NCBI GenBank assembly: GCA_010093815.1
Contig: ML996568.1
Source of the DNA: Pseudovirgaria hyperparasitica
Lineage: Eukaryota
Reading direction: 5' to 3' (one strand)
Length of the DNA: 64,000 nt
A program made the translations under genes and the position numbers. The notes beneath the pieces are model-generated. The model was given only the letters and a program-made list of their open reading frames with translations, did no database searches and was not told the DNA's origin. Within the stretch, counting starts at the first letter, position 1, and each line of letters opens with the position of its first letter. Positions 2,438-29,434 of this stretch are shown here, piece by piece.

Positions 2438-3946
2438 GGTGGAATACCCAAGTACAGGCTGGGCTGTAGACGGCGGTTAAGAAGGCTGAGGGTGATGATG
2501 GCAGTCATCATGGCGATGGACGTTGTTTGGCAAACAGTGAAGAAGGATATGGGGGATGAGTGTGATTCCACCAGCGCATGCGGAGTGCGACAATGTACAC
2601 ATGACGGTATGTGAGTATTCGTGATGAGTGTAGACTGCTGAGTGTAGGTATTTTGGTAGCCAAAGCAAGACCGCAGGCATGTGCGGTCGTATTGTGGTTT
2701 TTGAATGTGTTTCATGTTGGAGGCAGAAGCCACAAGACGTGTGAGTGGTCGTGTGACACACTCACACGACTTGAAGAGCAGTAGGTATGGACTTCAGGAA
2801 AAGACATGATGATGTTTGTGAATGATGGAGGACTTCAGGATGAATATGAACAGATATCAGAACTGGAATCTAAAAAGAAGGTTGTAGTTACCGTCACCGT
2901 CGCGCATTGTCCCAGTCCCTGTGCAGATCAGTCTTCCACATGCCGCAGCTGGTCAAACCTTCTTTACTTTTTCTACTGCCGGCCCGCTGACACGACCTTG
3001 TCCTCGGCCTCTGTTATCGTCTGTTGATTGTGATTGTAAGCTTATGCATGTTGCCAGGAGAGCAAAAGCCAAAGGTACATTCCATCAGATGGATGAATCT
3101 GATCCCGGGTATTACGGTGTTGCAGCCTCGCATATACGTCCTGGGACAAAGAACGGTAGGAGTATTTGTCAGAAGCCTTGTTTCTCATTCTTTTTTTCAT
3201 TTACCCCATTCCCTACTCTCTTTTCTATTTCCCATTCCATATTTCCTATTTCCATTTTCCCCTTTCACTCGTTCCCGGTTTCCCTTTTTCCCGCCCGTGC
3301 ACGATCCGCTGATACCGAATCGAGATGCCGAAAGTGGGGCGGCCAGGCACACGTGGCACGTGCGCTGATTGGTGTGTGGCTGGGATGTGGCTGCATGTGG
3401 CGTTTCTGCATCAACATCAACAACCAGCCTTGCTTCGATATTTCCGAACATGGTAAATGGGATGATCGAACAGATGAGAATAACACTAGTCGGACGATGA
3501 ATCTGGCAGATCATAAATGCTCGTTACCTCTTCTCCAAGCCTCGTTTTCACTGAATAAAGTATAACTGTCGTTTGCCCGTATCCCGCCCGTTAGTAGTCA
3601 CAACGCGGCATAGAACTCCAACTAGTAGCCTTTCCCCCCAACCTTCAAGCGCCTCGCACTAGGTATATATAGTGTGCGCCATCTTAGTATATACTTAGTA
3701 CCCCCTTTCGGAACTACAGCGCCCTGACCTTATTATCACCACTTTTTCTACTCCAGTTCCAATTTCTATCCCCCTCATCCGTCTCCTTGCAAGTTACCTC
3801 GCCTAGCTGTGCGCTTAGAATACAAGACGGCCGCCCATCTATTCTACCACGTCTTCTCCTGACACTCAAACCGTGTCTGCAAACCTCTCGCAGTCCTCGA
3901 CCATCTACCTTTGCTGACCGCGCCTTGCTGCGCCTGAGTCAGAAAC

Positions 3947-5458: not shown

Positions 5459-8400
5459 CTACTTTACAACTATTCCCTTCTTTCTCCTCCCCTTCCTCAC
5501 ACTCGCCCTCTTCCTACCCCCTTTACTCTCCGTATCGTCACCACCATCGTCATCGTCGTCAATCTCATTAAACGCCTTCCAGTTCTCCCTCCCGAAGATC
5601 TTCTGCGGCACAGCTAGTCTGGCCATCGCACGCAGCGGCTCATGCTCGCGCTCCCCCACGGGAATGATCTTCGCGTTCAGCAGAACATCCCTGATGCGCT
5701 CGTTCCGCGCCATGCCCTCGCCCAGCTCCTTGCGCGTCATCTTCATGCTCATCTCGAACAGCTCCTCCTCCACGGTGCCCTTAAGTATCAGCGTCTCGAC
5801 GAGCACGCGTCTGGTCTGCCCGATGCGATGCGCACGCTTGATAACCTGGGCCTCGAGCGCTGGCTGGCAGATGGGATTCACAATCAGCACCACGCTTGCG
5901 GCGTTCAGATCTAGGCCCTCACCGCCAAGCTTGACGTCGATCAGCAGCACTCTCACGAGCGGGTTTTCCTGGAAGTCGGTCTTGTTCTTGGCGCGTGTGC
6001 GAGTCGGCATGCGGTATGCGAAATGGCGGGAGCCGATGTGTAGGAGGTCGAGGAGGGATTGGATGTAGCGCGCGGTGGTGATGCAGTCGAAGAAGACGAG
6101 GACTTTTTCGTGCGGCGTGTAGCGGGTGAAGGCGTCGATAAGATAGCTTGCTTTGGCGGAGGTTGTGCCGAGGAGAGTGGAGGAGTGGAGTTGTGTCAGA
6201 TTCTTCTGTGTGCCGGAGTCAGTCGATGGACCTGTTGATGAGGATGTGGCTATCGATGGCTTGAGAATGCTGGGCTTTTGAGGTTGGCTCTTTGATGAAG
6301 AGGACTGTGGCGTAGCGTGGCTGTTTGATGAGTGGCCTAAGGATTCCGTTGTGATTCGCATCGGGAGGTCGCTGGCAGAGCCTGCGCTTTTCCGTGGTTT
6401 CGTTGGTGATTGCGATGGCAGTTCGTCAGTGGTGAAGCCGACACACTTTCTAGCGGCGGATAATGAGGCAGATGTGGATGTGTTTGATTCCGCATCCTCA
6501 AACTCAGGGCTGGCGACCGCGACATGGCCAGGCGTGAGGTTGAATTTGGGCCGCTTTGACGGTGATGTAACTTCTTCAAACTCATCCATCGCTTTGCGCT
6601 TGAGTAGATTGGGTGACTTTTTTCCGGCCTTGTTTGGGCTTCGATTCGATAAGATGCTCCTTCGCGCTCCCCCGTCCCCGTTGCTAGTGAGAATGGAAGA
6701 CGGAACGCCCGAGTTGAGGATCTTCCCTGCCGACTGCGACGTTTTTGCGTCTTTTGGATCCCTTTTGTGCTCCGTTTCCGCCTTCCGATCCTTGAACCTG
6801 CGTTTCATATCAATGCCAATCGCATTGAAACGCTCAAGCGGATCCTCATGTGCAGATTCAGCGCTGTTCACATGAATTTGTGCCTGGTACAGCGACTCAA
6901 GTCCGATCGGAGCGGGCTGATCTTTGTGATTCAGAGCCCATATGTCTAAGTAATCTTCGGGCCATGGGTCTACATATATTCCAAGCTCATGCGAGAAGCC
7001 CATCGCTTCCCATGTACTGATCCCAGGCAGTCTTTTGATTGTGTCCATGCTTTCCAACAATGCCTTGCGATCCTCTGCTGTGCATTTGGCTTCTGCTTTA
7101 TCAAGATAGGTACTGCAAACATCAAGGGACGATGCAACGTCATCGGGGCTGAACCCGGTCCAGAAGAAGTTGGCCTGCCGAAGATTTCGAATCAATTCAT
7201 GTCGTGGCTTTTCGTTGTCCTTGTGGAAGAGATAGTCACGATCGGCCCGTTCACTGGTGATGGCGTTTCCGCGCATGACTTGTACAAACATGTTGGTCGT
7301 CATCTTGTCGTAGAATGAGGGTTCTAGCCGAACCACTCGGTGGTTTAGTGGAGGCAGCTGGAGGTCTTTCTCTACATCTTCTGGGCGAGTCTTGATGATC
7401 AGCCTCTCCAGTGTCCTGGATAGACAACTTGAGTAGCCCGATAGTCTCGCGTCCTTTCCTGTCCCTCTATAAATATAGTCATTCCAATTGGCCGCGTTGT
7501 CGCCCTTCAAAGCCCCGGTAAATGGCTGTACTTTGAGAAACCGTGAGGCAAGCAGTCCAAGAGCTTGAGCGCCGTGCGTCTCATCAGGCGTGCTAAGAAA
7601 TCCTTTCCTTGCCTCTCGAACAGCTTTCCAGCGCTCAGAGGCGGTGGCATGGTCGCTGAAGTCCAAGTTCTCATGGTAGTGGTCGTCAATCTCCACGCCG
7701 ACTAATCCTTTGGCCGGAGTCCCGGACACGACCCACCGTCGCTCTGCCTGCAGTTGATTCGCCACCCGGACGGCCGCAGACGTAGGCGAGGCGAAGCCAT
7801 GTCCTTCGTCAACGACTATGCGGAGCCAATGAACTTCTTTGAGAGGAGATTTATAGATTTCCTCAGGCGTAAGACAGGTACAATCTCTGAGACGAGATGC
7901 TCCTATGTACGGACACCTGTGTGAGCGGCTGTCAGATCCTGATATCCATGCTAGGAGCAGAAATTCAACTCACTGGCAAGAAGTTTGTGGTCCCTGGCCC
8001 AATGATCGACCTTGGACATCTTGACCATCCAAGATCTCCAATTCAAACCTCGATTTTGTGAACAAAATAGTGTCATAGGTAACCAGTTCTGAGGCGCATG
8101 GTAATTTTTGGGTCCTTTCACCAATGTACAAGACGGAGAGGACTCCAGGTTCTACGTGACTGTGGATCTGACTGATCCATTGATCAAACAAATGATCCGG
8201 TACAACAAGCAGCGTGCAATGTGAGAGCGTGAGATGGCGTATAGGTAGCTTTGAGGGATTTCGATTGAACCGTATCGGGTCCGGTGGTATATTATAGGCT
8301 GGCACATAACTCTGGAGCAGCTCCACAAGATGAGGAGGGACTTTCGATCTTCTCCACGGAAGTGCGTGGCGAGCTATATTGGCTGCTGTCATAGAGAGCA

Positions 8401-20100: not shown

Positions 20101-23100
20101 GGAGGGAGAGGCCGCGCTGGGTGGACGAGATGTGGTGATGATGGTGGTGCGCTGTAGCTTGCGAGTGTTTGGTGTGTCGAGATGATCAGCCCCTTATTTG
20201 GTGTATTGAGATCAGTCACTGTGGTGTTGCTTGCTTGGTGATCCGTATATCGACTCTGCGTCATTGCCTCTTGCTGCCTATCGTTCTCCGGTGCATCCAT
20301 ACGATGAGAAGCGCAACGTGGGCAGCCTACTCTTGTGATCCTGTCATCCACTTTTCAGTTTCTGCATTTCGAGAATGATATAGACAGAGAGCATCACGCT
20401 TAAAACGACCATCACACTCGACAAATACCATCCAAGCCCATCACATCTTGCCACTGACCTCACTCTTCATCATCTGCCCCTGTCTACAGTACCCCAAAGT
20501 CCGCTTCCATTCTGACCACATCACCTCTGCCAAAACTAAACGCTTTTGCTCAACACACAACAGCATCACCTCCTCCTAGAAGATCCATCGCAGCATACTC
20601 GCGTATCTCCAACCCTTACCCACGCCACTCTACCCACCCGCCCACACAGATGTCACGAAGATGCACATACATACGTACACACCCTTCTTTGCCACGACCT
20701 CGAACGCAAATGATGTATCCATCAACCCTAACAGTCCTACCATACTCCAGTCTTTACCTCATCGAGACCGGCCACACAATCCAGCCCTCCCAAGCAGAGT
20801 AGAAAAGAAGAAATACAACAGCACACACGCGTCATCACAATATCCATATTCATCCGCTAAATAATCCGTGTAGTCTTGTTGCGTGCCCTCGACTAGACTC
20901 CCTCCACTTCACACACACACACCCCACACACTGAGGTCCAAGACTTGAGTACACTAGCTGGGGAATGTCACGGTGTGACGTTAACGTCGGCTGGCTCATC
21001 ATAAACATCCTGACTACCATGTCGTCTAGAATGGCAGAATGGAAGAGAGTATACCTTTGCACTCTTCAACATAGGTTTCGTCTTGGGACACGTCGTCACT
21101 GAACCTACAACTGTGTCCGACGGGCACGGGAACCCTAACCTTGAGCGTGAGATCATCAAGGCTAACCTCGTACCTAGCCAGACTGAGATTAACTATTCCA
21201 TCTCGAGCGTCATCGTGGATGGTATACGCACTATTAAAACTCGCGTCTGTCTGTCAAATCTCGCCTTGGCATCGTCCTGGTGCTGCTATACTCTACATTA
21301 ATGGCAAGATACAGTGCGTCGTTTCGCCTAAACTGACTTTGATACTAGATACCCACCAGCCCGATCACCGGCGTCATCCCAGGCGTGTTCGACTCACGGT
21401 TAGCCTTCTTCATCGTCCGCGACGTAAAGTCGTCCGCTTGACACGGATATCTACCGCAAACACATTAGTGTTCCCAGCTCTTCAGTCCCAGCTCTTCGTT
21501 CCAGTCGTTCGGACCGCACTCAGCATACTACGCTCGATATACCTTTGGTGGAAGCTGTATGAATAAACGAATTGAAGACACACACGCAAGAAAAGAGACT
21601 GTCCATCGTAAAAGAGGTCGAACCTAGCAACAGAGTGTTCTGCACGAAGTTCTCGGTAAAACGGAGCATGGACTGGAATAGATGTGTGGACACTCGCATT
21701 ACAAAGAGCTATATGTGCACCACACCAAACATGCAGAATTAAGATGCGCAATGAGCGATACCATAACATCCAGAAAACGTCGTCTGCGTAGAGTCATTTA
21801 CCTGTGCGTACCACGCAGCAACAACCTGTCTGGTCTCTGGAATAGCGCATCATAGGACTGAATAACATCCTGAGGTGGATGGTGTCTCACAACATGAAAT
21901 GTGTCGGTATACTGTCGGCCTGGCCGGGCTTGAACTTTTGCTGTCCCGATCTCGCTGCTGAAATCCGCGGTGTGCTATGCTGCTCGGACCATGGGACGAC
22001 TCGTCGGTTCGAGATCAGTGGCACTTCAAAGTCAGTCATGTAGGTAAGGCAAGTCAGACTTCGTTTGACGTCCTTATTCGGTCGTCCTTCAAGAACTGGT
22101 TGTTTTAGAATTGATTGCGTTCCTTGACAATCAAACACAGTTGACCTAAGCATTTTCCATACGTACAATATAGCGCTGATATGAGAAACATGAGTAAGAT
22201 CAGAAGGGTAGGAACATACGACTGACATTATTCACGACCAATCCGCGCAGTGCTCTCTTTACAGGCTTCGAAGTCATAAGGTACTGGCAGAACACTGGCA
22301 ACTAGCTCCAGCAATCATCTTCATCGACTGCGAAACTCTTGAGATGGAAAGATCTTATCGTGCTCGTGCTGGTCGATGCGGCTATGCAGTGCTGTGGCAG
22401 AGTGATCAGGAGCATGGATATTCATACCACTCTGCATCAGTGATGGCGGCTGATTTGACTTACATGGGCGGCGTGAGCGTAGGCAATGATGGCGTCGTAC
22501 AGTTCTCACGCTGGACGGAGGACTTTGACTTGTCAAGGATTGGTTGAAATATATACTAACACAGTGGATTTGGAAGTTCGCATGCTGAATGGCCGAGACA
22601 CTACAAGACAAAACATGTGAGTCTGAGAGAGCTAGTGGTGCAGCTTTCGATCTACACAATCCGAAACGACTCTGCACCATATATTCACGCCGCACGCGTG
22701 CCACGATCCTCGCTGCAGCTGCAGGACAGGTGAGCAAGAACGCACAACGATCGGGCGGCATATAGAGATCATCTCGGCTCCATCTACATCTACATCGATT
22801 GCAATACTACAGGTCCTGCTACTACGAGAGGATATGCACAGTTGTGGGATAACGAGGAAGTATGAATCATAGAGACGGGCAGAGATTCCTCTTTGTAACT
22901 GCACCAGTATCGCATCGCAGCAGTGGCATGGGGTGGGAAGAAGGAAAGTATGTATTGGATACCTCCATATGTGCTATGGTGGAATGATATAAGGATACGT
23001 CCTGCAGTCGACTTGGGACCTGTGCATTCGTATATCAAGAACACAATTACATATCCTACAGCAGCTAAACGCATAAGATAGTCGCTCGCGAGACAGGACT

Positions 23101-23324
23101 CGAGTCGAACACAATGACAGTGTCAAGAGCAGTATCAAAAAAGGGACCTAGTGTGAATCCCGAACGCTTGTGTCAACGGACTCACTCCGTCCGGAAAAGT
23201 GGTCCCGCGAGCTCGGGAGCTCTGCCGATCTCGGCTCCGTGTGTCCCGCACTTCCTCAAAACATTCGTGGATCGCCAGTCCATGAGTGTTGCCAAACCTA
23301 ACACGACCTTCTAAACAAAAAACA

Positions 23325-24402
23325 ATGAGCTCGCAAGCAAGACCGAAACCGCCGCCTGCGGGCGTCTGGTAAGCCTCATACATCTACATATACCTTCTAT
23401 CAAGTAAACCACCCACTAATCGACCACCCAGGTGTCCCGCCGTCACACTCTTCAACCCAGCAACCGACACCATCGACCACGAAGCCCAAGCAAAATGGTA
23501 CACCTACCTCTCCACCACCGGCCTCACAGGCCTCGTAATCCTCGGTTCGTCGCACCCACCACACCCATCCCCAAGCCCACCCTAACCAACAAACCATCAA
23601 CCCAGGCACCAACGCCGAACCCTTCCTCCTCACCCAAGCCGAACGCAAATCCCTCATCCACCTCGCCCGCTCCTCCGTGCCCCCCAACTACCCCCTCATA
23701 GCCGGCGTAAGCGGCCACTCAACCGCCCAAGTCCACGACTACATCGCCGACGCCCACGCCGCCGGCGCCAACTACGCCCTCCTCCTCCCACCAGCCTACT
23801 TCGGACCCGCCACCACGCCCGCAGTCATCGAGCGCTTCTACGACCGCATCGCCGCAACCAGCCCGCTGCCCATCATCATCTACAACTTCCCGGGCGTGTG
23901 CAACGGGGTCGATCTCGACTCGGACCTGATCGCGCGACTGGCGCGACGCAACGCGAATATCGTAGGCGTCAAGCTAACATGCGGGAGTGTGGCGAAGATC
24001 ACGCGGCTTGCTGCTGTGTTGCCGGCTTCGGAGTTTAGTGTGTTTGGCGGGCAGAGTGATTTTTTGCTTGGGGGGTTGGCGGTCGGGAGTGCGGGGTGTG
24101 TGGCGGCGTTTGCGAATGTGTTTCCGAGGGCGATAGTGCGGGTTTATGGGCTGTATAAGGCGGGGGAGGGTGCGGAGGCGTTGGAGTTGCAGCGGAGGGT
24201 TAGCTTGGCGGAGACGCCGTGTAAGGCGGGGATTGCGAGTACGAAGTTTGCGGCGGGGGAGTTTGCGGGGAGGAGGGCGGGGATTGAGGGGGCGGAGGGG
24301 AGGTTTGTGCCTAGGCATCCGTATGGGGAGGTGGGAGAGGAGGTGAAGAGGATGATTAGGGGGCATATGGCTGAGGTGGCTGCGATTGAAGACGGGTTGT
24401 GA
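23325..24402 (+). CDS. Dihydrodipicolinate synthase/N-acetylneuraminate lyase family class I aldolase, introns 23369-23431 and 23545-23605
   Basis: Spliced product MSSQARPKPPPAGVWCPAVTLF...LVILGTNAE...PIIIYNFPG...IVGVKLT (Schiff-base Lys)...GCVAAFANVFP. Substrate not determinable from sequence. Confidence 0.88.
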
Positions 24403-25464
24403 TTTTAGTATACGCTTATGCGGACGTCGAAGGTATGGCTTTAGTGACGGAACATGGCCGATAAATGTCGACGTCTTTGTGTACTGTGTACATGTTAGTC
24501 TTGGTCGTGTGTTTTTGTTCGGACAGGAAGTGCACTCTCAGGTTTCTCACCCCTGAACAGAGCGAACTGGCACACTGTACGAGTATAAAGATGCAGAGGA
24601 CCAGCTCTTCACAAGACAGCAACCTGAAAAAGACGAAGAGCACCGGCGAGACATTTTAAAGAAGCATACATACCAGATCAAACAAGACAAGGTCTTTACC
24701 GTAAAACACAACAAGACCCGGCTGATGGGTATCGCAGGTAATGACCTGTGCAATAACAACTCTCCCAATCTAGGAGAAGGTGGCATATATGATGACTAGG
24801 CTTGCTTATTGTTCTTGAATTTCTCCCTGATTTGACTTCCAATATCAGATTTGCGCTCTGCAACCTACGTTCGACTCAGTTCTTATGACTTCTAGATCTT
24901 ACTTCTGCCCACCTATGAAGAAAGGACTCTCCGTACGTCAATCCATGCAATTGGAAACACCATCATGACTGACTCGGACGACTGTTCAGAGCTAAGATGC
25001 AATCGAGGAGAACGTACTATGGAGGTGGTGTATTGCCCTCACTGAAAGCGTTAAATTCGAATGCAGCGCAGTGCGTTTCAGCTCTCAAAGTCTACACTTC
25101 GTATACGTTCTGAAAAGGGCTCAAGCACCAAGCGTAAGTTAAACATCGGCAAGTTGGTCGACAATTCTTTACGGGGCTTCAGTAGCAATGTGGCTGATAC
25201 TCGACAGCGAAGTCAATCACGGGTCACGGTAGGTTGAGGAATCATTGTTTATGTCCAGGAATCATTTGTATTACTATGGAAGACTGGAGCCTACGGATCA
25301 CTTGCCAGAAATGTTGGCCATTCATAATCTTCACGACCTACCTTGAGCTATGAATAGGTGACTGTAGTAGGGGATGCAAAAGGACGAGAGTGGTAAACCT
25401 GAGACAAACAATGTTAGCTTTTGGATCGAAAGAAACAAATGTAGCAAGATTGTTTGTGGGTGTG

Positions 25465-25572
25465 AGGATCAGACATCCAAGGAAGAATTTGCGCTCAACG
25501 ACTCCTCGGTTGTAGGTTCAAGTGAGGGCTAGCGTGGAAACTGCGAATGTAGGAAATGTTTCATCATGCAAG
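25465..25572 (-). ncRNA. U14: U14 box C/D snoRNA (snR128)
   Basis: Minus strand: box C ATGATGA (25567-25561), domain A CATTCGCAGTTTCCACG, domain B TTCCTTGGATGT immediately before box D CTGA (25472-25469). Confidence 0.93.
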
Positions 25573-25756
25573 ACAAGATGTAGGAGGAAATAGGATAGAA
25601 CTGACCTTCTCCTTGACTACGATGTATGCATGCGATGGGTACTACGAGCGGTGCGAGAGGTCGACGTTAGCTATGTGCGCCCGGTGAGGGTGAGATCTGT
25701 GATAGTGAGTTAGCAACAGTTTTTCAACGCGCTAAGCAAAGCATGTGTTCATCGTG

Positions 25757-25875
25757 GTTGTCAGACGGCATGTACTGGCAAGTAGCAGACCGCTTGCGAG
25801 GCAGTCCGGGGTGTGAGGCTCTTCATGGTCGAATCTGCTGGGGAAAGAAGAACTTTCTGTATATCATCACTCGAG
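25757..25875 (-). ncRNA. snR190: snR190-like box C/D snoRNA
   Basis: Box C GTGATGA (25870-25864). Guide TCTTCTTTCCCC is complementary to the conserved LSU rRNA GGGGAAAGAAGA, followed by D' CAGA. Box D CTGA at 25764-25761. Lies directly upstream of U14, as in yeast. Confidence 0.78.
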
Positions 25876-26709
25876 GGTAGGAGGGGGACAGAGAGAAGCT
25901 TACCAGTGGAGTGAGCAATGCATGAGGAAAAGAAGAGACGCATGTTGATGTTGTTGTGTGTGGTGGAAAGGTAGAAAAAGAAGAAAAATAGATGTGAGAG
26001 AATAAATAGTGCCGGGCGTGCGATAAAATACGGTAAGCGGTGAGGGTAAATGAGATGAGATCAGCCACACGTGACTAAAATACACGCACGGATCTGCACA
26101 TGGCCTTGCCCTCACTAATTCCCTACACAGACCGAGACAGAAGACCGACCAGCCCGACAACAGCTGAGACTGACTGAGAGAGACACACAGACTCACAGAG
26201 AGACCACAGACAGACCCGCTACCCGCTACCCAAACTCGCTGCCTCACCACACAACTCTTAGTAGTCGTGATAGAACACCTGTTTCATCTCGCGACTCGCC
26301 CTCCATACACCTTTTCCTCTTGCTGACTTCGCTTCCGCTACCGTTGTTGCTCTTCCATCGCCATTCTGATCCCTTATCGCACGCGATGCCATAATATCCC
26401 CTCACCATCGCCATCCATCCGCTTCCTCAACTCGTCCAACGCTCGTTTCCCCAGCCACCCGGGAACGTACGATTTCGCGGTACGCGCGCATCCACCTGTC
26501 CACTGGCTACGTATCTTTGCTTTATTGCATTCTATTGCGATTGTCATCCGACGATATCCTCAACCTGCTCGTCCTGCTCGTCCTGCTCCAAAAGCGCATT
26601 ACTTCTCCAGCCCACACAGCTGGCTACCTCCTCGCGCACGTCCTGCCCGCACTCTCCGCACTGGTGATCATTCACTAAACATACGCTGCTCTTCCACGGT
26701 ACCCTTCCC

Positions 26710-26917
26710 GTAAGCGTTTTATTTTTCTTTTATTTTTCTTCTTTCTCTTCGATACATCTCTGATGTGATCTGATGCGTCTTTCATGATCGAGTCAATTCA
26801 CACTGCTGACACCTTTCTGCTTATAGTGGCCATTTCTTAATACCCATGGTCCTCGACACCGCATTGGAAGTGCACATTGGGACCCCCGACATCGTTCCAT
26901 CAACCTATACATCTTAG
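26710..26917 (+). promoter_or_regulatory. Putative 5' UTR intron (26710-26826) and 23-codon uORF (26846-26917) of ptaB
   Basis: GTAAGC donor, T-rich tract, GCTGAC branch and TAG acceptor. ATG...TAG uORF ends ~105 nt before the main ATG. Confidence 0.5.
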
Positions 26918-27021
26918 CTCGACACAAGCCGGTAATAAGAGTGCCGACAGTGATAGCTTCGTGAGCCCAGAGGGCAGAGGGGGCGCATCTTGGCGTCAAA
27001 CTGGCCGTATAGATTGCCAGG

Positions 27022-29434
27022 ATGATGACCAGTGGATTCCCTCACCATGGAGGCGGTCCTGGTGGAGGGCCTCACCCCGGAATACCTCAAGGTATGGGAC
27101 CTGGCATGGGTGCTCCAATGATGCATCCTGGCGGCCCAGGTCCAGGAGGGCCTCATGGACCTCAAGTCACCCAAGGTGCCGGCCCGCACATGATGGGTAT
27201 GCAGCCTGGTGTAGGTGGACCACAAGGACAGCCAAGCCAGCACGCCATGGCACATCTCGGGCCTCAGCAGCAACAGATGATGATGCAACAGCAGCAGAGT
27301 GCGTATGCTGACGAAAACTACGGGTGAATGGAAATGCTGACTCTGCTCCAGTGAACACCAATTTCCACATGCAACAGCAGCGTGCATTCATGCAGCAACA
27401 ACAAATGCTGCGGCATCAACAGCAGCAACAACAGGCGCAGCAGCAACAGGCACAGCAACAGCAACAGGGCATGGGCATGGCCTTTCAGAATGGGCAACCC
27501 GGAGGCTTAACACCACAGCAGATGCATGCTATGCAGCAACAACATCAGCAGCAGCTTGGTGGTGTTGGCGCTCTTCCTAACCTTCCTCCTCATTTCATTG
27601 AGGCACAACAGCGCCTGCGTCAACAGCAGCAACAGGCACAAGCCCACCAGGCTGCCCAGGCCCAGCAACAGCAGCAGATGCAACAGCAGATGCACGCCAT
27701 GCAATCCCAAGGCAGCAATCAGGGACACCCCGTCTCGCAACCTCCACAAGGTCCCCAACCACAAGCACAGCAAGGACCCATGCGACCACCATCTCAGATG
27801 GGCGGCCCACGAGAAGCGCAACCGTCGCCAGCGCCGCAAGCAGCTCCACAGCAGCCTCCGACTCCGCAGCCACAAGGGGTACAATCAAATCCCGGTCAGC
27901 CTCAAGCGTCGAACAACCCTCAGCAGAACACGCCACAGCAGGGACAACCAGCGCCAGGTTCACAATCACAGCCTCAGCCTGGAACCCAGCCGACGTCTGG
28001 ACCCCCAAACCCGCAGCTACAGCAACAGATGACCGCAACCCCACTCCAGCAGCAACAAGCTCAGCAACAGGCGCAACAACAGGCCCATCAACGTATGATG
28101 ATGCAACAAATGGCACGGGCGCAACAACAACGATCCAACAGCGGTCACCTCATCCTGAAACTTATAGCGTTCTCAGATCGACTCGGCGCGTTCACTGTAT
28201 GATGGTACATGAAATCTTCAGGCTCGCATGCACTAACATATCCTAGGCTGAACACAACAAGATCGAGCTATGGCAGCAATTTGTTAGAACCTTCTTTTCA
28301 GAAGACGGAAGTTTCAATTACATTCTGGCCCACAAAGATAACGGAAAAACGAAATTGTACGACATTTCCGCAGCGTCACTCCCGCGGTTCTACATGGCAC
28401 ACTTCGAAGGCCAAGAGCGAGTCGAGTCCATGCGCTTCTCACTGGAAGGCCTACACGAGACCGTATCACAAACAGGAGGTGTGGTCCATGCCAGCCGTGC
28501 GAAGCTGATCTACGATTTCCAAAACGGCACCCAAGTAAGTACTCCATGGCATGACAAGATAACGTAGCTAAGACTTCTGGTAGCTCATTTGCAGTGGCAC
28601 ACTCGCAGCTATCCTCACGACAGACGACAAGATTGAGGTCCTCCATTTTGAAAGTACCAGCTCGCAGGACTATGTTCCGCGCGATAGGCTGGCTGAACTT
28701 TTTGCTGAAGATTCGCCGGTGCAGACGATCAAGCAATCTCCAAAACTCAACAAGAACGCCAAAAATCGAAACCAGCGCCAACAGCAACCTCGTACCATCC
28801 GAGAGCAAGATATTCCCAGAGCGCCCGTCAACGAGTACGGTGTACTGAGAAAGGTTGGAGGCTTTTTGGAGGTAAGTAGTAGATGGATCTGCCACGTGTG
28901 AGTTGCGAGCTGAACTGTTGCCAGATCTCCGAGACGCTTTCCCATATGCAAGGACTCATGGGCCACTACGTAGCGAATCCGAATATGTCAGTCAGTGCAG
29001 CGTTGGGCGATTACGTTCAAAGGATGCAGGCTATGCAGCCTCAGCAGCAACTCGGACCAGGTAACATGCCAGGTGCGCGCACGCCTTCAGGCATGTCGAG
29101 TGGAAATTTCGGCCCTGGACCAGCCGGACAGTACATGTCTCCAGCTATGGCGAACATGGCACTGCCTCACCAAGTCAACGGTTCTCCCCATCTCATGCAG
29201 ACTCATACTCCTTCACCTGCTCAGACACATAACCTCGCTACTCAACATTCTCAACAAGGTACCAACAGTTCCGCAACTGCAAGCGCAAACACCAGTCCTA
29301 ATGTCTCCAATAAGCGCCGTCGTAGCACGGTGAAGCAGGAAGGCGACGATGGCGAAGTCAATGGCACAAACACCAAGACGAAGCCAAGTCCTCGAGTCGG
29401 AAACAATAACAAGAGGTTGAAATCTGGGGCATGA
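27022..29434 (+). CDS. ptaB: Q-rich LIM-domain-binding (LDB) transcriptional co-regulator, PtaB/Mfg1 homolog; introns ~27299-27351, 28197-28246, 28535-28583, 28872-28924
   Basis: G/P/M- and poly-Q-rich N-terminus, then ILKLIAFSDRL...WQQFVRTFFSEDG...VNEYGVLRKVGGFLEISETLSHM, and a C-terminal NLS-like NKRRRS. Confidence 0.82.

Follow-up and report, generated by a model that had tools for sequence, protein, structure and literature searches.

U14 is an essential box C/D small nucleolar RNA (snoRNA), and its human copies lie in host genes other than the non-coding ZFAS1. The closest described relative of the locus reported here is cluster V of Neurospora crassa, for which Liu et al. 2009 (PMC2780460) describe two validated snoRNAs, CD16 and CD37, each within an intron of a UHG-like host gene that has only short open reading frames (ORFs), with co-transcription established by reverse transcription PCR (RT-PCR). 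According to the same description, CD16 is 122 nt long, is assigned 26S-Gm2357 via its D' box with a 13/0 guide, and has snR190 and HBII-99 as homologues; CD37 is U14 and is assigned 18S-Cm411 via its D box. In fission yeast, Leroy et al. 2025 (PMC11971394) identify snR107 as the orthologue of Saccharomyces cerevisiae snR190 and human SNORD12/B/C, place it in an intron of the long non-coding RNA (lncRNA) mamRNA directly upstream of U14, and describe this position as common to the snR190-family RNAs snR190 and snR107. Canzler et al. 2018 (PMC5824354) report finding no homologues of U14 or snR190 in basidiomycetes. Here we describe a locus of this type in the dothideomycete Pseudovirgaria hyperparasitica, within a stretch of 64,000 nt from contig ML996568.1 (assembly GCA_010093815.1), referred to below as the window. 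Our reading is that it holds a UHG-like non-coding host gene on the minus strand whose two spliced introns yield an snR190 orthologue and U14, in that order, and we put the probability of this reading at about 0.88. A first-pass annotation of the same DNA had pointed to intronic versions of this pair in non-coding hosts of other fungi, and cluster V is indeed such a case.

Splicing of both introns is documented by contigs from two public runs of one sample (X1 and X2, library type unrecorded), which were aligned to positions 22000–29000. Eight joints were obtained and all eight have canonical intron ends; we therefore take the contigs to be transcript-derived. Six of the joints are GT..AG introns of the two flanking plus-strand genes, and the remaining two read CT..AC on the plus strand, as expected of GT..AG introns of the opposite strand. 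An X2 contig joins 25696 to 25904, removing exactly 25697–25903 (intron 1), and contigs of both X1 and X2 join 25398 to 25606, removing exactly 25399–25605 (intron 2; the joint is tabulated as 25396 to 25604 with 'cut +2', which after the shift corresponds to these positions). One X2 contig lacks both introns, spanning that of the snR190-type RNA (snoRNA-1) as well as that of U14. Minus-strand introns of 207 nt each had been predicted at 25903–25697 and 25605–25399, and the contig joints, with their minus-strand splice signals, agree with both predictions to the base.

The host transcript covers at least 25281–25966 in the contigs (minus strand, as are all features of the locus given below). 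Exon 1 (25904–25966) is followed by intron 1 (25697–25903, 207 nt), which reads GTAAGC...TGCTAAC...CAG, with GTAAGC as donor, a CTAAC branch-point sequence at 25713–25709 and a CAG acceptor. Exon 2 (25606–25696) is 91 nt long and non-coding, as judged from the contigs and the ORF check, and intron 2 (25399–25605, also 207 nt) reads GTCAGT...AGCTAAC...CAG, with GTCAGT as donor, CTAAC at 25417–25413 and again a CAG acceptor. Exon 3 (25281–25398) ends where the X1 contig ends, at about 25281 or 115–116 letters past the intron 2 joint, rather than at a mapped poly(A) site. The interval first proposed for the locus, 25342–26030, therefore falls short on this side, the last exon being at least about 60 nt longer. 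Towards the 5' end the contigs follow the window as far as 25966, beyond which their letters are unrelated and of low complexity, so that the limit of exon 1 is not fixed by them; the true 5' end may lie as far out as about 26008, where a TATTTA occurs. The contig-free stretches at 24808–25275 and 25978–26211 are uninformative on the transcript ends.

The exons are as small and as poor in coding capacity as had been supposed, the longest ORF of the spliced host RNA being 27 codons. The locus has one snoRNA per spliced intron and exons without a meaningful ORF, as in UHG-like hosts, and no separate function is known for the short exons. The host would not be non-coding if the 21-codon ORF that starts at the ATG at 25943 encoded a functional micropeptide, and this ORF does begin with an ATG and crosses the junction between exons 1 and 2. 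Its length is only 21 codons, however, no ORF in the spliced RNA exceeds 27, and the comparable N. crassa host genes, which likewise have only short ORFs, are regarded as non-coding in the account of Liu et al. (PMC2780460), all of which makes a functional peptide a very improbable explanation.

The snoRNA of intron 2 (25465–25570) matches Rfam SNORD14 (RF00016) over the whole model, positions 1–111 of 111, with 45 bits and an E-value of 1.3e-7 in 2.4 kb or 3.5e-6 in the 64-kb window; in the sub-threshold Rfam listing for the window, which has 7 matches, the next best has an E-value of 0.74. The alignment places the hallmark elements CAUUCGCAGUUUCCAC and UUCUUCCUUGGAUGUCUGA at top posterior probability. 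By sequence and alignment, the C box UGAUGA lies at 25566–25561 and the D box CUGA at 25472–25469, and both elements complementary to 18S ribosomal RNA (rRNA) are present. Domain A (25549–25537), of 13 nt, has the sequence CAUUCGCAGUUUC and pairs at 13 of 13 positions with GAAACTGCGAATG, a site in the 5' region of 18S and close to where the ribosomal DNA (rDNA) units begin. Domain B (25486–25473), of 14 nt, has the sequence UCUUCCUUGGAUGU and pairs at 14 of 14 positions, one of them a G-U, with ACATCCAAGGAAGG in 18S.

The rDNA loci used here are metagenome contigs, the rDNA of P. hyperparasitica itself lying outside the window, and they were found with a pattern consisting of the complements of both U14 guide elements spaced 297–327 nt apart. 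The two complements co-occur at this spacing in at least 102 metagenome contigs. Among the 102 stored loci, eight extend more than 4500 nt past the match, and four of these eight also carry the large-subunit (LSU) site GGGGAAAGAAGA, as expected of rDNA; we accordingly regard the matched contigs as rDNA units. Because the pattern was derived from U14 itself, the independent evidence lies in the co-occurrence and the 18S-like spacing rather than in the lengths of the matches. With a match over the whole SNORD14 model and both 18S-complementary elements present, we consider the identification of U14, already made in the first-pass annotation, to be sound. Five bases upstream of the U14 CUGA stands a G that faces the first C of the CC in ACAUCCAAGG, and domain B together with box D would be predicted to direct 2'-O-methylation of that C. 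This nucleotide is presumably N. crassa C411, as given by Liu et al. 2009, and yeast C414.

The RNA of intron 1, snoRNA-1, is a box C/D RNA of the snR190/snR107/SNORD12 family by its Rfam alignments, and its boundaries (25756–25872, 117 nt) are those of the Rfam match; U14 follows on the same strand, 186 nt downstream. The match to snR107 (RF04328) has 20.3 bits, with an E-value of 1.2 in 2.4 kb and 0.078 in 161 nt, and that to SNORD12 (RF00581) has 17.5 bits, with an E-value of 0.35 in 161 nt. These are the sole family matches to snoRNA-1, one more overlapping match from the SNORD12 clan having been suppressed in the Rfam output; a partial sR4 match of 22 nt lies at its 3' edge. No match named snR190 is among those listed; the earlier label 'snR190' holds for the family of orthologues. 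Posterior probability in the alignment is high over UCUUCUUUxCCC, UCGACxAUGAxGA, UACUUGCCAGUA and GUCUGA. Its functional blocks are the C box (25869–25864), antisense element 1 (ASE1, UCUUCUUUCCCC, 25851–25840), a D'-like CAGA (25837–25834) aligned to the degenerate D' of the family, the UCGAC motif, a C'-like UGAAGA (25825–25820; consensus UGACGA), a stem-loop, the core of antisense element 2 (ASE2, UACUUGCCAGUA, 25784–25773), which is identical to the snR107 consensus, and the D box (25764–25761). Outside the guides, two conserved parts of the family, the UCGAC motif and the stem-loop that follows C', are both kept; read from the alignment and a fold, the stem-loop differs in sequence from the family yet is again self-complementary. 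Folding of both snoRNAs with their flanks gave z-scores of 0.22 and 0.38, uninformative values of the kind expected for C/D RNAs.

ASE1 forms 12 Watson-Crick pairs out of 12 with the conserved LSU sequence GGGGAAAGAAGA in all four rDNA loci that reach this region. If the D' box is taken as CAGA, the +5 rule points to the third G of GGGGAAAGAAGA, in LSU domain V, as the predicted target. This position appears to be in register with S. pombe Gm2483 and yeast G2395, not by numbering on a reference rRNA but because of the Rfam alignment and the statement in PMC11971394 that 25S 2480–2493 of S. pombe is the complement of ASE1. The family's ASE2 is complementary to LSU domain I (S. pombe 333–343) and in fission yeast supports 60S biogenesis. 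S. cerevisiae snR190 does not methylate G2395, as PMC11971394 states.

Several results weigh against our reading, in whole or in part. A search of the whole window at Rfam gathering thresholds returned no match, and the recognition of both RNAs by Rfam that had been anticipated was realised only below threshold, as matches to U14 and to the snR190 family: U14 scores 45 bits against a gathering score of 64, and snoRNA-1 scores 20.3 against 44 for snR107 and 17.5 against 43 for SNORD12. The snR107 match is not significant window-wide and does not appear in the list for the 64 kb at E ≤ 10. Rfam flags the pairs of the 4-bp terminal stem of U14 as non-standard, and a C/D scan of 24700–26300 on both strands that required a 4-bp stem found neither snoRNA; by sequence, then, neither appears to have a canonical terminal stem. 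When snoRNA-1 was subjected to mononucleotide shuffling and only Watson-Crick pairs were counted, a 12-nt run anywhere in the ~7 kb of rDNA was reached in 19, 17, 30 and 13 of 500 shuffles for the four loci. The ASE1 run by itself is thus only suggestive, and its weight comes from its place beside the D'-like box and from a target that is shared with the family. No ASE2 pairing of 11 nt or more is present in any of the four rDNA loci; the only one found is a 10-nt pairing including G-U with TACTGGCG[A/G]G, in 3 of 14 loci (L001, L041 and L053). Finally, one X1 contig that lacks intron 2 keeps intron 1 together with snoRNA-1, and the X1 and X2 data, being contigs of an unrecorded library type, cannot reveal mature RNAs of ~105–120 nt.

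In L001 the ASE2 and ASE1 sites are about 2035 nt apart, the ASE2 site being the upstream one, and its position fits LSU domain I. The domain I site varies among the sampled eukaryotes, and the P. hyperparasitica 25S is not one of them.

Scores so far under the gathering thresholds, without window-wide significance, and an ASE2 pairing that cannot be demonstrated in the rDNA loci tested are what would be seen if the RNA of intron 1 belonged to another C/D family, or were a decayed copy, and U14 alone had been named correctly. Against such a view, the two ranked matches both fall in families described in the literature as snR190 orthologues, the alignment takes in the order of the boxes, the UCGAC between D' and C', the stem-loop that follows C' and the 12 nt of the ASE2 core, ASE1 pairs with a conserved LSU site, and the synteny with U14 is that seen in three other fungi. 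We think a wrong family assignment quite unlikely, and we continue to treat snoRNA-1 as the probable snR190 orthologue.

The position of the snoRNAs within their introns bears on how they are released. The C box UGAUGA begins at intron position 35 in intron 1 and 40 in intron 2, and the Rfam matches begin at 32 and 36, close to the ~33–38 nt from the donor that had been described. Downstream of the D box CUGA, the 3' splice site is reached after 64 nt in intron 1 and 70 nt in intron 2, and the branch-point A of CTAAC after 51 and 55 nt, respectively. This spacing of both boxes fits that of the N. crassa intronic snoRNAs as described by Liu et al. 2009 (PMC2780460). A global alignment of the two introns has 128 identical columns out of 226 and a score of 6, where shuffles average −20.8 (sd 5.9); the likeness could be explained by the boxes and splice signals that they have in common and by composition, and we do not claim a duplication. 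The equal length of 207 nt we treat as coincidence or as the outcome of shared spacing constraints.

The X1 contig that retains intron 1, the one running on to about 25281, means that partly spliced RNA is present, and most of the snoRNA output might come from RNase III-type cleavage of unspliced or partly spliced precursors, or from promoters of their own, with splicing incidental. Production by cleavage would resemble that of S. cerevisiae snR190-U14 and of S. pombe U14, the latter being released by Pac1 cleavage (Migeot et al. 2025, PMC12508059), and Liu et al. (PMC2780460) noted putative promoters upstream of CD16 and of CD37. What speaks against it is that both snoRNAs lie inside spliced introns with a stereotyped spacing, the C box 35–40 nt from the donor and the D box 51–55 nt from the branch-point A, and that the distance to the 3' splice site matters for the processing of intronic snoRNAs according to earlier work cited by Liu et al. 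This argument is one of position only, a stem-loop of the Rnt1/Pac1 type not having been searched for, and it makes release by cleavage or from separate promoters unlikely. The retention of intron 1 in the X1 contig (25604–25932, minus strand) may mean that the first intron is spliced slowly or in a set order.

On the reading that we prefer, release by splicing, RNA polymerase II would make one precursor from a short promoter region common to the host and the divergent plus-strand gene starting near 26241. Both 207-nt introns would be spliced out, each with one box C/D snoRNA on which the C/D core proteins would assemble, and the lariats would be debranched and then trimmed by exonucleases to the core protected as a small nucleolar ribonucleoprotein. 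Intron 2 would give U14, whose domain A would pair with the 5' part of 18S and serve the processing of pre-18S rRNA. Intron 1 would give the putative orthologue of S. cerevisiae snR190, S. pombe snR107, N. crassa CD16 and human SNORD12, with ASE1 predicted to pair with GGGGAAAGAAGA in LSU domain V. We infer that the mature small RNAs exist, that they are released by splicing followed by trimming, and that the methylations occur.

The locus is most like N. crassa cluster V, in which, as Liu et al. 2009 (PMC2780460) describe it, the same two families follow one another in the same order, one to an intron, within a host having only short ORFs. The predicted targets agree as well, an LSU G via D' and an 18S C via D, and co-transcription, demonstrated there by RT-PCR, is seen here in the spliced contigs. 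The two species belong to different classes, N. crassa to the Sordariomycetes and P. hyperparasitica to the Dothideomycetes, and the loci were compared by description rather than by sequence alignment. CD16 is given as 122 nt with a 13/0 guide, whereas the Rfam match of snoRNA-1 is 117 nt and its perfect run is 12 nt.

The mamRNA/snR107-U14 locus of S. pombe likewise has an intronic snR190-family snoRNA of an lncRNA directly upstream of U14 (PMC11971394), and snR107 and snoRNA-1 have ASE1, the core of ASE2, the C' box and the kink-loop motif in common. It differs in that U14 is exonic, downstream of the intron, and is freed by Pac1 once splicing has taken place, as reported by Migeot et al. 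2025 (PMC12508059), whereas U14 has its own intron here. Moreover, a scaffolding role involving Mmi1 and Mei2 is known only in S. pombe, where mamRNA/snR107 is described as a scaffold for RNA-binding regulators of sexual differentiation (PMC11971394; PMC12508059). The S. cerevisiae snR190-U14 dicistron has the same pair in the same order on one precursor, although it has no introns and depends on Rnt1 cleavage. Human ZFAS1 is likewise non-coding and hosts snoRNAs of the SNORD12 family in successive introns (PMC11971394), but it carries three paralogues (SNORD12, 12B and 12C) and no U14.

The arrangement is already known from N. crassa and is met here again in a second class of Pezizomycotina. 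With it, the conserved fungal locus in which an snR190-family snoRNA is followed by U14 on one precursor gains a representative among the Dothideomycetes. Two classes of Pezizomycotina are now seen to have both RNAs in separate introns, beside the RNase III mode of budding yeast and the mixed intron and exon layout of fission yeast. Together with cluster V the present locus shows that an intronic locus of the snR190 type is conserved outside Schizosaccharomyces, at variance with the statement of Migeot et al. 2025 (PMC12508059) that conservation of the intronic-snR107 locus 'was not evident' in more divergent organisms, outside that genus. Since both snoRNAs score under the Rfam gathering thresholds, standard protein- and Rfam-based pipelines would omit the gene, and U14 and its partner are here a concrete example of snoRNAs that annotation by threshold misses.

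By analogy with S. pombe mamRNA/snR107, the host RNA and the snR190-type snoRNA might hold a second, non-ribosomal role, and, as a separate matter, the two-intron layout might be the ancestral ascomycete state; we regard these as long shots. If the two-intron layout, found here and in Neurospora, were ancestral, the budding-yeast dicistron cut by Rnt1 and the fission-yeast arrangement of intron plus exon would both be derived.

A third intron or snoRNA downstream of exon 3, starting at GTAGGT (25341), was considered and rejected: the X1 contig reads through this sequence with neither a stop nor a splice, and there is no Rfam match and no C/D candidate with a 4-bp stem. As the contig continues to about 25281, GTAGGT is not used as a donor in the assembled RNA. 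The scan for a 4-bp stem is a weak negative for a third snoRNA, because it missed both real snoRNAs too. On the minus strand, the region 25100–25341, which reaches beyond the assembled transcript end, contains AATGATTCCT as a direct repeat, together with a GTAGGT...TTTTCAG pair resembling a third intron. Elsewhere in the window, sub-threshold C/D matches in Rfam are to sR53 (5507–5557, minus strand, E-value 0.8) and to GlsR14 (3148–3211, plus strand, E-value 5.3); both are probably chance matches.

The left neighbour (plus strand, ending near 24703) encodes a DHDPS-family aldolase (Pfam E-value 1.7e-26, with Protein Atlas in agreement), and its exon is 100% identical to a P. hyperparasitica protein, the next best match being at 71%. 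This identity places the DNA in a dothideomycete and rejects a basidiomycete origin, which would have mattered in view of the result of Canzler et al. 2018. The right neighbour (plus strand, from about 26241) encodes a glutamine- and proline-rich protein of 735 aa; six short GT..AG introns in this gene are supported by contigs, one of which, at 26710–26826 (GTAAGC..TATAG) in the 5' untranslated region, is visible in contig pieces as a seventh intron of the two flanking genes beside the six tabulated joints. Its exon at 27354–28196 has no Pfam match at E ≤ 0.001. This gene may resemble fungal regulators of the LIM-binding/PtaB type. The snoRNA host and the right neighbour are divergent and arranged head to head, the neighbour starting at most 275 nt from the host's assembled 5' end. 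Between them the minus strand carries CACGTG (26073), CTCATCTCAT (from 26059) and the TATTTA at 26008, and the CTCATC motif presumably resembles the ribosome-biogenesis PAC motif.

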